This document shows positions 4,189-13,091 of a stretch of 64,000 nt of DNA, in pieces; the stretch's first letter is position 1; each line of letters opens with the position of its first letter. The DNA lies in NCBI GenBank assembly GCA_964397755.1, contig CAYNJY010000004.1, forward strand, positions 1,117 through 65,116, in the 5' to 3' direction. Position numbers and translations under genes: made by a program. The notes under the pieces were generated by a model. That model was not told the origin of the DNA. It made no database searches and was given only the letters and a program-made list of their open reading frames with translations. Origin of the DNA: an uncultured Gammaproteobacteria bacterium. GTDB taxonomy: Bacteria > Patescibacteriota > Microgenomatia > UBA10105 > UBA927.

Positions 4189-5097
4189 ATGTCTTCCCGT
4201 ACGAAGGCCCTGCTTGCGATGACCCTCGCCACCCTCCTCTGGTCAACTGCAGGGCTTTCCAAAATCCTCGTCCTGGCGCTCGACCCTTTTACTGCCGGCT
4301 TTCTCCGGTTCTTTGTCGCATCGCTCGTTGTTCTTCCGTTTTTCTTACGAGAAAAACGGAAGCGGGGGACATTCGCCGACCTCATCCCGGTCGGGATTTT
4401 TTCTACGGTAAACGTCGCCTTGTACTTTTGGGGACTCTCCCTCTCAACAGCCAACGCCGCAGCGATCATCTACAGTGCCATGCCGCTCGTCGTTGCCATC
4501 CTTGCCAAACGAATAATTAAAGAAAATGTGACGCCCAAAAAACTCCTGGGCATACTCATCGGGTTTACCGGTGCGCTCTTTGTCGTCGTCCTTCCGCTCC
4601 TTGAAAAAGGTGCCGTGGTGTCCGGAAACCCTTTCGGGAATGTGCTTTTTGCCGTCGCGGTGTTGGCGTGGTCTTCGTATACGATCACATCCAGACAAGC
4701 GCTGAACCGGGGGTACTCGCCGCTCTCCGTGAGCGCAGTCTCCATACTCACCTCGTGTGCGGTCTTTTTCTTTCTTGCTCTCCCGCACTATAGCCCTCTC
4801 TATGTTTCAGTAATCCTTCAGCCCGCGATGTTCCTTCTCCTGCTCCACATCTCGATACTCGTTACCGTTGGGACATTCTTCCTCTACCAGTGGGCGCTAC
4901 AACACTCATCGGCCACAACCGTGTCGCTCTATATTTACTTTCTTCCGCCGATCTCGGTCGTCATCAACGTCATCTTTTTAGGGGAAAAAATTACGACGGG
5001 GTTCGTCATCGGTAGTGCCCTCGTTCTCCTTGGTGTGTTTCTGGCAACAGGAAGCAATCTTACCTCCGAAGTAAGGTCGTGGTTTCGGAGACGCTAG
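4189..5097 (+). CDS. DMT/EamA family transporter
   Basis: About 300 aa polytopic membrane protein with two EamA-like halves. Start moved to ATG 4189 (MSSRTKALLAMTLATLLWSTAG); the upstream extension in the ORF track is not membrane-like. Confidence 0.7.
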   Translation: MSSRTKALLAMTLATLLWSTAGLSKILVLALDPFTAGFLRFFVASLVVLPFFLREKRKRGTFADLIPVGIFSTVNVALYFWGLSLSTANAAAIIYSAMPLVVAILAKRIIKENVTPKKLLGILIGFTGALFVVVLPLLEKGAVVSGNPFGNVLFAVAVLAWSSYTITSRQALNRGYSPLSVSAVSILTSCAVFFFLALPHYSPLYVSVILQPAMFLLLLHISILVTVGTFFLYQWALQHSSATTVSLYIYFLPPISVVINVIFLGEKITTGFVIGSALVLLGVFLATGSNLTSEVRSWFRRR

Positions 5098-7560: not shown

Positions 7561-7895
7561 ATTGAAGTCAGTATACACTAGGTCATTGCAGACGAAAAGA
7601 GGTCGCAGTGTCATGAGTCACGCGCCCGAAGCCGAATCTTTCTTCGTCCCGGCTTAGCCGGGACATTCTGGCGAAGGAGAGGAAATGGGAAATTATACTC
7701 GTACACTAAATTGTGCTTTCCAACCGATCTCTTCCTCTTATCAATTTTGTTTATGATACGCTTACTATGATAAAATTGCAGCCAAGACTTCATATGAGGT
7801 CTCAAACAAAACGGGTGTGGTTATACGATCAAAAGAAAATGAACGAGTATTTGCAGATAGTTACTACATATAACCCACGCTTGTTGAAAAATTTT

Positions 7896-7985
7896 GGAGG
7901 AGTCCGATAGTTGGTCAATTCGGGAGGTTTGCTAAACCTCTGAGCCGTAAGGCTCACGTGGGTTCGAATCCCACCTCCTCCGCCC
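7896..7985 (+). tRNA. tRNA-Ser (anticodon GCU)
   Basis: Acceptor GGAGGAG/CTCCTCC, anticodon loop TTGCTAA, long variable arm, T-arm GTGGGTTCGAATCCCAC, and a 3' CCA. Confidence 0.8.
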
Positions 7986-7986
7986 A

Positions 7987-8073
7987 GGAGGGTTGGCCGA
8001 GCGGTTCAAGGCGCTAGTCTTGAAAACTAGTGGGAGCAATCCCTCACAGGTTCGAATCCTGTACCCTCCGCCA
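7987..8073 (+). tRNA. tRNA-Ser (anticodon UGA)
   Basis: It starts one nucleotide after the preceding tRNA. Anticodon stem CTAGT/ACTAG with loop CTTGAAA, long variable arm, T-arm ACAGGTTCGAATCCTGT, encoded CCA. Confidence 0.8.
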
Positions 8074-8797: not shown

Positions 8798-9442
8798 CTA
8801 ATCTCTACTTTTAATGACGAGTGCAATTCCTTTGTGGACGTTAATTGTTGCGCTTTTTCTCTTCAACTCATTGCTGATGCCTCGAGATGTGCCTCGTTTC
8901 AGTTGGATGCCAACTAACGGATAGGTAAATCCAGAAAGAGACACAGTTACAGATTGTGTATGTGGTAAAAGCGAAAGGTATCGATATTGTTGTTTTTTGT
9001 TTACGCGGTACGAATCCTTTACCAGGATTATTTCATTTCTCTCATCGACAATCGCTGCTTTAATTCCTTTACTCAAAAATTTTTCAAGCATGTGTACTGC
9101 AGCGATGGTGTGATCTAGACGAGTTCCGATACCGCCAAAAATAATTACCTCTTTCGGTTTGAGACGAAAGGAATAATCGACAGCGAGTTCAAGGTCGGTA
9201 GCGTCTTTCTGCGCTGAAAACATAAGCACCTTTTTTGCTTTCTTTTTAATAAGCAGTAGTTCTCTCTTTGTCACCGAATCAAAATCTCCGAGTGCAACAT
9301 CGGGAGTAAGTTTATTTTTGATAAGCCACCGCGCGCCTCGATCAACACCGATTATTTTTTGGGCACGTCTGATTTGGCGAATCAGGCTTTTGTCCAACAC
9401 TCCTCCAGCAATTATCGCAACAGTAAGTCCATTTTTTTTCAT
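8798..9442 (-). CDS. thiamine pyrophosphokinase
   Basis: 214 aa. It has the GDFDS motif (VALGDFDSV), the GGIGTRLDH region and a C-terminal thiamin-binding-like domain. Confidence 0.7.
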   Translation of the reverse strand: MKKNGLTVAIIAGGVLDKSLIRQIRRAQKIIGVDRGARWLIKNKLTPDVALGDFDSVTKRELLLIKKKAKKVLMFSAQKDATDLELAVDYSFRLKPKEVIIFGGIGTRLDHTIAAVHMLEKFLSKGIKAAIVDERNEIILVKDSYRVNKKQQYRYLSLLPHTQSVTVSLSGFTYPLVGIQLKRGTSRGISNELKRKSATINVHKGIALVIKSRD

Positions 9443-9445
9443 ATA

Positions 9446-10141
9446 CTACCGAGCCATGGTGACACCCCAGACAAATTGAGTACCACTTCTTTTCAAAACA
9501 TTGGCTGCCGATCGCATAGTTGCACCGGTCGTAAAGACATCATCAAATAAAAATACATTGTTCCATTGTTTCATTGCTACATTGTTAGCTGCAAAAACTT
9601 TTTCCATATTTTTAAGCCTCTCCTCCCTCTTCTTCACTTCGACTTGCGGAGTCGTTTTACGAACTCGATACAGCAAATCCGTTCGCATGGGAATCTGCAA
9701 TTGTTGGGCAATGAGCGCGCCCAATATTTCTGCCTGATTATAGCCTCTTTCTCGAAGACGAGTAGGATGAAGCGGAATGGGAATTAAAAAAGAGCTTAGG
9801 GGCTTAGTGCTTAGCAGCTTAGTAAGATCAACAAAAGAAGAGGAAGGAATAAGGGTAGTAAATTCTTGGGCGAGATCGTAGACGTAGCGGTATTTCAATG
9901 CTTTGACCGCCTTTCGAATACTGCCGTCATAGTGGAAAAAGCTTGTTAAACCATCGAGGCCGTAGCGGGTTCTACACCGCGGGTGCGTTGCGCCGCCAAT
10001 GGCAGGCCGCTCGCAGACCGGACAGATCGCCTCATTTCGTTCGATAACCCGAATAATTGAAGTACATCGTTGACAAAAATATTTCCCACCTTTTCCGCAC
10101 CCCAAACAGCGCTTCGGAAAAACAATATCAAGAATCTTCAC
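9446..10141 (-). CDS. comFC: ComF family protein (double zinc ribbon plus phosphoribosyltransferase domain)
   Basis: CxxC...CxxC pairs (RCLGCGK, CQRC, CPVCERP) and a PRTase motif (VFLFDDVFTTGATM). The start is moved to GTG 10141, which follows a strong AAGGAGG Shine-Dalgarno. The longer ORF in the track (to 10273) overlaps the tmRNA gene. Confidence 0.8.
   Translation of the reverse strand: MKILDIVFPKRCLGCGKGGKYFCQRCTSIIRVIERNEAICPVCERPAIGGATHPRCRTRYGLDGLTSFFHYDGSIRKAVKALKYRYVYDLAQEFTTLIPSSSFVDLTKLLSTKPLSSFLIPIPLHPTRLRERGYNQAEILGALIAQQLQIPMRTDLLYRVRKTTPQVEVKKREERLKNMEKVFAANNVAMKQWNNVFLFDDVFTTGATMRSAANVLKRSGTQFVWGVTMAR
9556..9592. repeat. CAATGNNN-type octamer repeat (reverse orientation) inside comFC
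   Basis: acattgttccattgtttcattgctacattgtt. It encodes NNVAMKQWNNV just before the PRTase motif. Confidence 0.75.
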
Positions 10142-10203
10142 AAAAAGACCTCCTTGTCTATTGTACAAGGAGGTGCTTGCACTGAGACACTCTTGTGTCG
10201 AAG

Positions 10204-10590
10204 TGGAGACGGAGAGGAGTGAGCTCTCGTCCAGAATGACGATCCCAACACATCTACAGGCGTAGTCAATCATTGTTGTCGTCTCTTCCTGATCCGATTG
10301 ACAGGAAAGAAAAGATCAAGACGTATTGTTCTTCGTCTTAATTGGAACGTCGAACCATTAAGACTGCATCCCGGCTTTGTTTACACCTCAAGAATGTCAC
10401 CGAGAAAACGTTCAAGAGATGGCCTTACGCCTCTGCAAAGAGATATGCTCTCGGTGCTCGAGATGCGTAAAAGGCTGCTTCAGCTTGTTCAGCATCAGCA
10501 TTTATTGGTTTGACGGTTGTTTAACGACCACCCATCAAGGTCGGCCTGCAGTGTTAAAGAGCATCACTCTGTCGAATCTTGTACGTCCCC
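10204..10590 (-). ncRNA. ssrA: tmRNA (ssrA)
   Basis: The minus-strand 5' end is GGGGACGTACAAGATTCGACAGAG, nearly identical to the Bacillus subtilis tmRNA 5' end (GGGGACGTTACGGATTCGACAGGG). The 3' end is GGAC-GAGAG-CTCACTC-CTCTC-CGTCTCC-A. This matches the B. subtilis tRNA-like domain architecture (GGAC GTGGG TTCGACT CCCAC CGTCTCC A) and pairs with the 5' GGGGACG. It lies immediately upstream of smpB on the same strand. Confidence 0.7.
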
Positions 10591-10595
10591 GTTGT

Positions 10596-11039
10596 TTATT
10601 TCACCTTCCCCCGAAACTCAACTTCCAGTTCTCTTCGCTGGTCTTCCCGCTTTATGGCCTCCCGCTTCTCGTACTTCTTTTTCCCACGGGCAAGACCAAT
10701 CTCAAGCTTGATCCGGGAGCCTCTAGTATACCAAGCAAGCGGAACCAAGGTCAAACTGGCTCCGTCGATCTTGCCCTTCAAACTCATTATTTCCTTTTTG
10801 TGCAAAAGAAGCTTCCGTGTCCGTTTGGGGTCGTAGCCCTCCGGACGCGCAAAGATGTAGGGAAATATCTGGGCATTGACGAGGTACGCTTCTGAACCGA
10901 TGACCCGCACAAACGATCCCTCTAAACTCGCGTGCCCGCCGCGCAGCGACTTGACCTCCTGACCGGTCAGGTGCACCCCTGCCTCGAGGCGATCAGTAAT
11001 CGTATAGTCATAGGTGGCTTTGCGATGTACGATTCTCAT
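10596..11039 (-). CDS. smpB: SsrA-binding protein
   Basis: Start at internal ATG 11039 (MRIVHRKATYDYTI...). The body and the basic C-terminal tail (KKKYEKREAIKREDQRRELE) are characteristic of SmpB. Confidence 0.9.
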   Translation of the reverse strand: MRIVHRKATYDYTITDRLEAGVHLTGQEVKSLRGGHASLEGSFVRVIGSEAYLVNAQIFPYIFARPEGYDPKRTRKLLLHKKEIMSLKGKIDGASLTLVPLAWYTRGSRIKLEIGLARGKKKYEKREAIKREDQRRELEVEFRGKVK

Positions 11040-11047
11040 GGTCGTTT

Positions 11048-12826
11048 CTACTTCAAGGTGAGTGCGTAGATCTTCCCCTCTGCAAGAAGGAGAATTTTCC
11101 GCTGTGCCTCTGAGACGACCATTTGGGTCGGAATGAGGCTCCCTTCCCACACGTACTGGGCCAGGTACAAGCCGTCTTTGTCAAGAACCACAATCCGCTT
11201 GTTCACGCGATCAAGGACATAGGCGTTCTTTGCGCTATCGCTCGTGTAGACGAACAGATCACCCCCAAACGCCGGCTCAACGCCTTTGGGTAGAAACGTC
11301 ACGTCTCTTCCCTGCACGAATCGCACAATTTTCCCGTCCGGCGTTCCCACCCATACTGATCCGTCAATTGCCATCCCTGTTGCCTTCGACAAATCCGGAA
11401 GCGTATCGGGATTGAGGTACTCGCGACGTTCGGAAAAACCGTTTTCTGTGGCAACGTACTTCCAAATACGACTTTTCTCTCTGTCCAGGAGGTAAAGATT
11501 GCCCCCGTACGAAACAACACTCGATATCGTACCCCACTCTGCGTCTTTCCGAACAATGTCTGCTACCACTTTGTTGTCGCTCGTTCGTATCTCATGAATG
11601 CCGCTCGGGACGAGGATGTAAATCTTGTCTCCGTGGGAGGCAACGGCCGTAGCACCGGACAACCGTTCTCCACTCAACACCACGGCGCCGCTTTTGTTAG
11701 AAACCGACACCGCATAGACTGCATTCACGGCGTAATCCACAATGCCAAGCATGTCTCCAGAAAGAGCAAAACCAGAAACGACGGCGCCTTTGCGCAGTAA
11801 GCTCACGTCATAAAACAGCTCTGGTTCTGTCTGTGTGATGTGCATTGCAGACGTCAGATTTGCCACGGCATCTTCGTAAAGCTCAATCACCTGTCTTCCC
11901 TCTTTGGACCGCTTCGGGACACTCAAAAGGAGTGGCGCGAGGGTCTCTTTTGCCATGGTGAGCCGTTCCCGGCCTTTCACTGGATTGAGATCCAGTATCG
12001 CCATGCCTTCATCGAAGGCGCGCTGCGCTCCGGTGAGCGCCTCGCGTACGAGCGTGTTTCTCTTTACCCCAACCTGTTTCTGAATACCCAAAACCACGCT
12101 CCCGATAAATAGTATTGTCGAGGCAAGTGCGATAAGGGCGTAGAGACTGAAGCGTAGAGGAAAAACGCTTCCAGTGCGCCTCCATAGAGCCCCAAACATA
12201 TCTCTTCTCCTCGCTGACTCCGGCGGTCGTGCTTGCGCAACAACTGTGTGTGCCACTGTCTCCTCTGCCGTTTCAATGGAGGAGACTTGGAATATGAGTG
12301 CCGCTCCGCCTTCGCCACCCTGTTTCCCATGGAGCAAAACGGTAAGCTTTTCCGCGACGTCCGCCGGCGGAAGATGGTCAAAGATGTGCCCTAGCTCATC
12401 CGTTGAAAGCGCCATAAGAAATCCTCGTGTAGCAAGAAGGAGACTGTCCCCTCCGGCTACGTTTCCCGAGATCTCTCCCATACCATCAACGAGGGTGGCT
12501 ATCTTCTCTCCGCGCTTAAGGTACACGCGCCCACTGCCACGAACCACGAGGTACAACACCGCGCCAACAGGAACAAGGAGCAGAAGTGAGCGCACCGAAC
12601 CATCTACCATGGAATCTGCAATAGCCGCAAGCCCTCCAAGACTTTTTGGAGGAAAGACGAGGAGTCGAGACAATTTTGTCAAAAGTCCCACACCGTGCTG
12701 ACGCGCAACAGGATCCTCCGTCTCAACCTCTAATACACCAAATGCTGCCGGTGATTGGAGTACCTGTCCCCAGACGGTCTCTGTCGAGTGTCCGACAACC
12801 GTTGCAATGACTGGCCGAATCTGCAT
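11048..12826 (-). CDS. hypothetical membrane-anchored protein with repeat-rich C-terminal domain
   Basis: Start at ATG 12826 (MQIRPVIATVV...). About 260 aa cytoplasmic region, one TM helix (LYALIALASTILFIGSVVLGI), then about 300 aa of beta-rich repeats (possible propeller). No motif recognised. Confidence 0.55.
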   Translation of the reverse strand: MQIRPVIATVVGHSTETVWGQVLQSPAAFGVLEVETEDPVARQHGVGLLTKLSRLLVFPPKSLGGLAAIADSMVDGSVRSLLLLVPVGAVLYLVVRGSGRVYLKRGEKIATLVDGMGEISGNVAGGDSLLLATRGFLMALSTDELGHIFDHLPPADVAEKLTVLLHGKQGGEGGAALIFQVSSIETAEETVAHTVVAQARPPESARRRDMFGALWRRTGSVFPLRFSLYALIALASTILFIGSVVLGIQKQVGVKRNTLVREALTGAQRAFDEGMAILDLNPVKGRERLTMAKETLAPLLLSVPKRSKEGRQVIELYEDAVANLTSAMHITQTEPELFYDVSLLRKGAVVSGFALSGDMLGIVDYAVNAVYAVSVSNKSGAVVLSGERLSGATAVASHGDKIYILVPSGIHEIRTSDNKVVADIVRKDAEWGTISSVVSYGGNLYLLDREKSRIWKYVATENGFSERREYLNPDTLPDLSKATGMAIDGSVWVGTPDGKIVRFVQGRDVTFLPKGVEPAFGGDLFVYTSDSAKNAYVLDRVNKRIVVLDKDGLYLAQYVWEGSLIPTQMVVSEAQRKILLLAEGKIYALTLK

Positions 12827-12878
12827 AGCAGCTGTAGCGTAGCACACTAGCCGTGAAAGCGCACGAGCATGGAGGAAC

Positions 12879-13091
12879 TTACAGAAGGACCGCTGCCAAG
12901 ACAAGAACGGCGATGGCTGCGATGAAGTGAGCAACGGTGAGCACCTTGAGTACCGGCTCAAAGGCATCTTCGAGTACGTTCTCCATGAGTTGCTCCTGTC
13001 GAATCATTACTGCCGCAAACAGGACATACAGGAGGAGTCCGATGAGGGCCAGCGTTTTTACGAATATCAGGATGGTTGCAGACAGTACCAT
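12879..13091 (-). CDS. small two-TM membrane protein
   Basis: 70 aa, two hydrophobic helices. It is packed tightly between the bPH-domain gene and the large membrane protein on the same strand. Confidence 0.4.
   Translation of the reverse strand: MVLSATILIFVKTLALIGLLLYVLFAAVMIRQEQLMENVLEDAFEPVLKVLTVAHFIAAIAVLVLAAVLL

Follow-up and report, generated by a model that had tools for sequence, protein, structure and literature searches.

In the rescue of stalled ribosomes, tmRNA acts together with a protein partner, SmpB. The standard tmRNA represented by the Rfam family RF00023 (SsrA of E. coli and B. subtilis) has a 7-bp acceptor stem with a G3·U70 pair, a discriminator A, a T-stem of 5 bp with G53-C61 as its closing pair and a long helix 2. 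Pseudoknot 1 (PK1) stands ahead of a GCN resume codon, the in-frame stop codon lies in helix 5, there are further pseudoknots, and smpB is located alongside. All of these features recur in the locus considered here, which is part of a window of 64,000 nucleotides (the whole stretch of DNA that was analysed). The locus departs from the standard in several ways: with CUCACUC in place of UUCRANY the T-loop lacks the U54·A58 pair, there is one G in the D-loop and not GG, the gene carries no CCA, the tag of 24 aa is long and has AEA at its end, and ssrA begins 5 nt past the smpB stop codon.

The canonical T-loop contains a reverse-Hoogsteen pair, U54·A58; its U55 and C56 are the docking sites of the D-loop residues G18 and G19, with G18 stacked beside A58; a genuine T-loop is normal for tmRNA (PMC7912444). 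Comparative work has found the tmRNA T-loop to be highly conserved, with rare exceptions (PMC1168896). Patescibacteria tmRNAs have already been catalogued, with 5,275 instances for 6,765 genomes (supplement of PMC11915505).

The ssrA gene and its neighbours

A preliminary description of this DNA had placed a tmRNA gene in the gap between comFC and smpB. A search of the window with RF00023 (Rfam release 15) bears this out: a minus-strand match running from 10590 to 10201 scores 134.1 bits (gathering score 47, E-value 2.8e-52) and covers the model end to end (positions 1-374 of 374), the 5' and 3' ends being folded into a tRNA-like domain. The sequence details given in that description are all found at the places stated. 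The extent proposed earlier, 10142-10595, has to be narrowed; the tmRNA lies inside it but occupies 10204-10590 on the minus strand. The features of the gene and its neighbour are as follows.

10596..11039, minus strand: smpB, 147 aa plus stop codon (Pfam SmpB, 158 bits; NCBIfam NF003843)
10204..10590, minus strand: ssrA, one-piece tmRNA, 387 nt to the discriminator A (Rfam RF00023)
10584..10590, minus strand: 5' strand of the acceptor stem, GGGGACG, G3 pairing with U70 (G·U)
10571..10583, minus strand: D-loop analogue UACAAGAUUCGAC, with one G where most tmRNAs have GG
AGAGUGAUG/CGUCAUUCU, minus strand: helix 2a (Rfam alignment)
10503..10545, minus strand: PK1, stems CGACC/GGUCG and UGAUGG/CCGUCA (Rfam alignment)
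10425..10499, minus strand: tag reading frame ADAEQAEAAFYASRAPRAYLFAEA plus stop, tmRNA positions 92-166 (ARAGORN on a C54U variant)
10212..10228, minus strand: T-arm GAGAG-CUCACUC-CUCUC, with the T-loop at 10223-10217 (Rfam alignment)
10204..10211, minus strand: 3' strand of the acceptor stem, CGUCUCC, and discriminator A (Rfam alignment and alignment of the relatives)

The smpB gene is intact and adjoins ssrA, its stop codon (10598-10596) standing 5 nt before the tmRNA 5' end, and its product scores 162.7 bits with the NCBIfam equivalog NF003843 (cutoff 130). The tmRNA begins with GGGGACGTACAAGATTCGACAGAG (10590-10567); the earlier statement that this is almost identical to the 5' end of B. 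subtilis tmRNA was probably overstated. The 3' end was read at 10232-10204 just as described before, GGAC GAGAG CTCACTC CTCTC CGTCTCC A, followed by CTT and not by CCA, and the proposed pairing of its last stretch with the 5' GGGGACG holds at all seven positions, the G3·U70 wobble included. The T-arm has a 5-bp stem closed by G-C and a 7-nt loop. The tag frame opens with the resume codon GCU (10499-10497) and runs for 24 codons to a UAA stop (10427-10425), which in the computed fold is located inside a helix-5-like stem, and a further pseudoknot region was aligned by the RF00023 model. Within the 64-kb window, which was the scope of the Rfam scan, there is no second tmRNA match. Likewise, no second copy of the tmRNA 3' end, the mark of an integrated island, was found in the window with three mismatches allowed; the only occurrence is ssrA itself.

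The fold is also supported by comparison. We collected relatives by a scan with SmpB, taking one genome per GTDB species, and aligned 24 distinct acceptor-plus-T-arm sequences. All 288 pair cells of the two stems are occupied by standard pairs, and seven of the 12 pairs (all five of the T-stem and two of the acceptor stem) show compensatory changes. The covariation score was not attained in any of 500 shuffles, and with the partners shifted by 1-3 columns pairing falls to 41-62%. Neither G3·U70 nor the discriminator A changes in any of the 24 sequences. In a full-length alignment of eight sequences both PK1 stems are present and covary, as judged by eye; one relative (L015) has the compensatory versions CGACU/AGUCG and UUGACU/AGUCAA. 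Conservation in this alignment ends just past the discriminator and the next C.

The closest SmpB relatives come from Candidatus Gottesmanbacteria and other Patescibacteria MAGs, with identity of up to 81%. By protein similarity they place the organism in Candidatus Gottesmanbacteria, and since identity is at most 81%, the window organism is a different species from those MAGs. The tmRNA adjoins smpB in all 20 closest SmpB relatives (Rfam); in 19 of them it follows smpB directly on the same strand, as a rule 1-5 nt past the stop codon, and in L019 it is on the opposite strand. Among more distant Patescibacteria loci the tmRNA adjoins smpB in 17 of 20. Downstream of the tmRNA, on the same strand, comFC is found in most close Gottesmanbacteria-like relatives. 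Six Gottesmanbacteria tmRNAs (L004, L009, L011, L014, L015, and L017) share with the window the 5' end GGGGACGUACAAGAUUCGACAG, the T-stem GAGAG/CUCUC, C54, a pyrimidine at position 58 and the smpB-ssrA order, which continues with comFC in L009, L014, L015, and L017; they differ at position 60 of the T-loop, where they have A and the window has C.

Every defining tmRNA feature that was tested is present in the window, with the sole exception of the typical T-loop sequence, and this deviation is common to the whole clade. The points that count against ssrA are the negative ARAGORN result, a T-loop without U54 and A58, and the tag end AEA. Weighing these, we conclude with high confidence that the locus is the ssrA of this genome, encoding a standard one-piece tmRNA of Candidatus Gottesmanbacteria (Patescibacteria/CPR), that its T-loop is normal for the clade, and that the 275-aa comFC ORF extending into it is an artefact. 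It is an ordinary gene; the correction of the annotation is valid, and the clade-wide change of the elbow is a modest curiosity.

Several observations concern the surroundings of the locus. Directly upstream of smpB is an ORF of 639 aa (11048-12967, minus strand) with no Pfam match, called as 592 aa in the Logan gene call, also with no Pfam hit recorded; genes for DUF5657 and SpoIID proteins are located farther upstream of it. Among the relatives, MAGs named “uncultured Gammaproteobacteria” (binchicken, SRP co-assemblies; L002, L006-L008, L010, L014, L016, and L018) code for SmpB 64-81% identical to that of the window and carry Gottesmanbacteria-type tmRNAs, and a contig of a “Lysobacteraceae” MAG (L036) has a Patescibacteria-like tmRNA. 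The titles of these MAG records look mislabelled, or the contigs misbinned. L014 also contains a borderline Rfam match to tRNA-Sec (4775-4862, minus strand; 48.2 bits at a gathering score of 47), which is probably a long-arm tRNA-Ser and not a selenocysteine tRNA.

The T-loop, the D-loop and the CCA end

The T-loop of the window tmRNA reads C54-U55-C56-A57-C58 and not the canonical U54-U55-C56-R57-A58. To see how widespread this is, we took as Gottesmanbacteria-like the 17 tmRNAs with SmpB identity of at least 68%. Position 54 is C in 15 of them and U in two, and position 58 is U in ten, C in four and A in three, while positions 55-57 are U-C-A in all 17. The six tRNA genes of the window all keep the UUCRA T-loop, and outgroup tmRNAs obtained by the same SmpB-anchored procedure have UUCGAUU in ten cases out of 11. 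Going by these alignments, CUCACUC is the normal tmRNA state of the clade and not damage. Apparent 6-nt T-loops were also noticed, in five tmRNAs (L026, L027, L039, L054, and L069).

The state of the T-loop goes together with that of the D-loop. Among 49 SmpB-anchored tmRNAs, those with GG in the D-loop have a canonical T-loop in 17 cases and a non-canonical one in two; where GG is absent, the T-loop is canonical in one case and non-canonical in 29. Loss of GG together with change of the T-loop suggests, in counts that ignore shared ancestry, that Gottesmanbacteria and the Patescibacteria next to them have remodelled the elbow in a concerted way.

The preliminary description had noted, correctly, that CCA is not encoded and that the T-loop is non-canonical, and both turned out to be normal for the lineage. 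In the window ssrA the discriminator is followed by CUU, and most of the relatives' tmRNAs lack an encoded CCA as well. A clear encoded CCA is present in only two of the six window tRNA genes (two tRNA-Ser, ending in GCCA), and at least three are clearly without it. As CCA is encoded in so few of them, it must be added post-transcriptionally in this organism; to judge from these gene ends, such addition would be the norm, with the tmRNA included.

Two minor observations relate to gene ends. The two tRNA-Ser genes (anticodons GCU and UGA) abut one another at 7895-8073 on the plus strand, CCCA alone separating the first discriminator from the second G1. In three relatives (L002, L005, and L006) a trailer CYYCGCCCYGA...ATCGGGGCTTCGCGTGGTAARCCACA, with two hairpins, is found about 5-50 nt past the tmRNA 3' end; it is conserved though their tmRNAs differ, and is absent from the window.

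Loss of the CCA and mutation of the T-loop might be taken for signs of a decaying tmRNA pseudogene, with a working ssrA elsewhere in the genome, and the failure of ARAGORN to find the gene would fit such a reading. We consider it very unlikely. Since the same loop type is typical of the lineage, present in 15 of 17 Gottesmanbacteria-like relatives at the same place adjoining smpB, CUCACUC is not a sign of decay, and absence of CCA is shared with at least three of six window tRNA genes and most relatives' tmRNAs. All the stems are intact, with compensatory changes, the tag frame is open and conserved, and the 64 kb hold no other candidate that could be the working copy.

If the locus is thus read as an intact ssrA, its elbow raises a broader possibility. 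Gottesmanbacteria and several neighbouring Patescibacteria lineages may carry out trans-translation with a rebuilt tmRNA elbow, in which U54·A58 and one docking G of the D-loop are lost and the tRNAs remain canonical, as a functional variant not yet described; we put this forward tentatively, being somewhat inclined to doubt it. No description of this variant of the tmRNA elbow and T-loop turned up in the literature searched. If the proposal is true, the T54·A58/G18 layer would be dispensable for tmRNA, also where RNase P, the CCA-adding enzyme, EF-Tu and the ribosome recognize it, and the rebuilt elbow would also explain the under-calling of tmRNA by motif-based finders in Patescibacteria. 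Docking of the T-loop and D-loop relies on a motif conserved universally; its relaxation in tmRNA alone, in one CPR clade, is a modest point biologically and offers a natural test of the elbow contacts needed for trans-translation.

The start of comFC and the intergenic hairpin

Downstream of ssrA the following features are located.

9446..10141, minus strand: comFC-like gene of the ComF family, 231 aa, start codon GTG at 10141 (Pfam DZR_2 and Pribosyltran)
10142..10273, minus strand: spurious lengthening of the comFC ORF by 44 codons at its N-terminus, overlapping 70 nt of the tmRNA 3' end
10142..10174, minus strand: terminator-like hairpin ACCUCCUUG-UACAAUAGA-CAAGGAGGU followed by CUUUUU (terminator scan; fold)

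The mechanical ORF 9446..10273 codes for 275 aa, starts with ATG and enters the 3' part of the tmRNA. The public (Logan) gene call uses the same ATG at 10273 (position 3767 of L001). The extension could thus be real, an N-terminal part of ComFC encoded over the RNA-like sequence, but we regard this as even less probable than the pseudogene. Residues 1-44 have no domain or homology. The Pfam DZR_2 domain occupies residues 47-100 of the 275-aa ORF, i.e., residues 3-56 counted from GTG 10141, and in the relatives tblastn picks up homology from the first residue of the GTG-10141 protein onward. Of 16 relatives, 14 have a start codon at the corresponding place; in 11 of the 16 an in-frame stop codon intervenes between this place and the tmRNA. 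The GTG (10141-10139) is preceded by AAGGAGGT, ending 6 nt upstream, and the bases overlapped by the extension are conserved as RNA stems. Judging by domain position and homology, the true comFC CDS is 9446..10141 and the 275-aa ORF is an artefact, in agreement with the earlier proposal that the ORF was over-extended through the RNA and that the GTG gives a ComF of normal length.

The protein has a double zinc ribbon near the N-terminus and a C-terminal phosphoribosyltransferase-like domain, as do members of the ComF family (ComFC/GntX, TIGR00201). The NCBIfam comF profile TIGR00201 is its best match, with positions 1-190 of 190 covered by residues 26-231. The score of 86.7 bits is below the curated cutoff of 233.55, as for a divergent member, so the comFC-like protein is named at the family level only.

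The hairpin in front of comFC (10174-10148) has 10 bp. Its U-run stops right at the GTG, and the Shine-Dalgarno sequence for comFC is formed by its 3' arm. The fold of the 68-nt trailer has an energy of -25.2 kcal/mol (z -3.8), and equivalent CCUCCU.../...AGGAGG hairpins are located ahead of comFC in three relatives (L017, L016, and L013). By its sequence the hairpin seems to combine a terminator with an occluder of translation: it would end the smpB-ssrA transcript and, in read-through RNA, mask the ribosome-binding site of comFC.

The promoter scan of 9400-11300 gave two sites, with 1.5 expected by chance. One candidate, TTGACC-18-TATACT, located 135 nt upstream of the tmRNA, is inside smpB and coincides with a conserved SmpB peptide; we do not claim it as a promoter.

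Detection by ARAGORN, the proposed pathway and the tag peptide

In the window ARAGORN reported six tRNAs and did not call any tmRNA. When C54 alone was changed to U in silico, the program called a tmRNA with the tag ADAEQAEAAFYASRAPRAYLFAEA and stop at 10499-10425; after changing C58 alone to A, or adding CCA alone, it was still negative. As C54U alone rescues the call, the miss is due to a motif filter and not to a defect of the overall fold. More widely, of the 38 tmRNAs that the Rfam search gave for Patescibacteria ARAGORN detects nine, and of 11 in the outgroup (non-Patescibacteria from the same scan) it detects eight. In the tmRNA database a Patescibacteria genome has on average only about 0.78 tmRNAs (supplement of PMC11915505), and the database paper merely mentions taxa with a low ARAGORN yield (PMC11915505). 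For annotation the lesson is that ARAGORN misses most tmRNA genes in this lineage, and gene callers then stretch a neighbouring ORF over the RNA.

The SmpB sequence of the window is found unchanged on one Logan contig (ERR3478686), which matches the window without a difference for 4,482 nt and is perhaps from the same sample. Of the alternatives, the least credible, to be given hardly any weight, is that an error of sequencing or assembly put the odd T-loop into a tmRNA that is canonical otherwise: one change would indeed satisfy ARAGORN, but besides the identical Logan assembly, CUCACUA or CUCAUUA occurs within the same T-stem setting in independent MAGs from other studies.

For the intact ssrA, a course of events can be proposed by analogy with the established trans-translation pathway. 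Most likely smpB and ssrA share a transcript, given the 5-nt spacing between the smpB stop codon and the start of the tmRNA. Maturation would consist of RNase P cleavage at G1, removal of the 3' trailer past the discriminator A and addition of CCA by the CCA-adding enzyme, after which AlaRS would charge the tmRNA via G3·U70. SmpB and EF-Tu would then bring it to stalled ribosomes, where translation would resume at GCU (10499), and the nascent chain would gain A-DAEQAEAAFYASRAPRAYLFAEA and be marked for proteolysis. We infer all of these steps, from co-transcription and processing to charging and tagging, from that pathway.

The tag frame ending in GCA GAG GCG TAA that had been suggested before is the one called by ARAGORN on the C54U variant, and its N-terminal half is common to the relatives' tags. 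ADAEQA(E/Q)AA is found in the window, L010, L009, and L011 (the L010 tag starts with ADAEQAEAAFYA..., those of L009 and L011 with ADAEQAQAA...), and several Gottesmanbacteria tags start with A(D/E)AEQA. The window tag differs from those of its Gottesmanbacteria relatives by a 15-nt insertion and by its end, ...LFAEA, where the relatives have LSA, FAFA, LYA, AYA or LNA; ending in AEA, it is unlike the hydrophobic LAA/YA type. Set beside the relatives' tags, such an end is unusual by E. coli standards and is inside the range of the clade.
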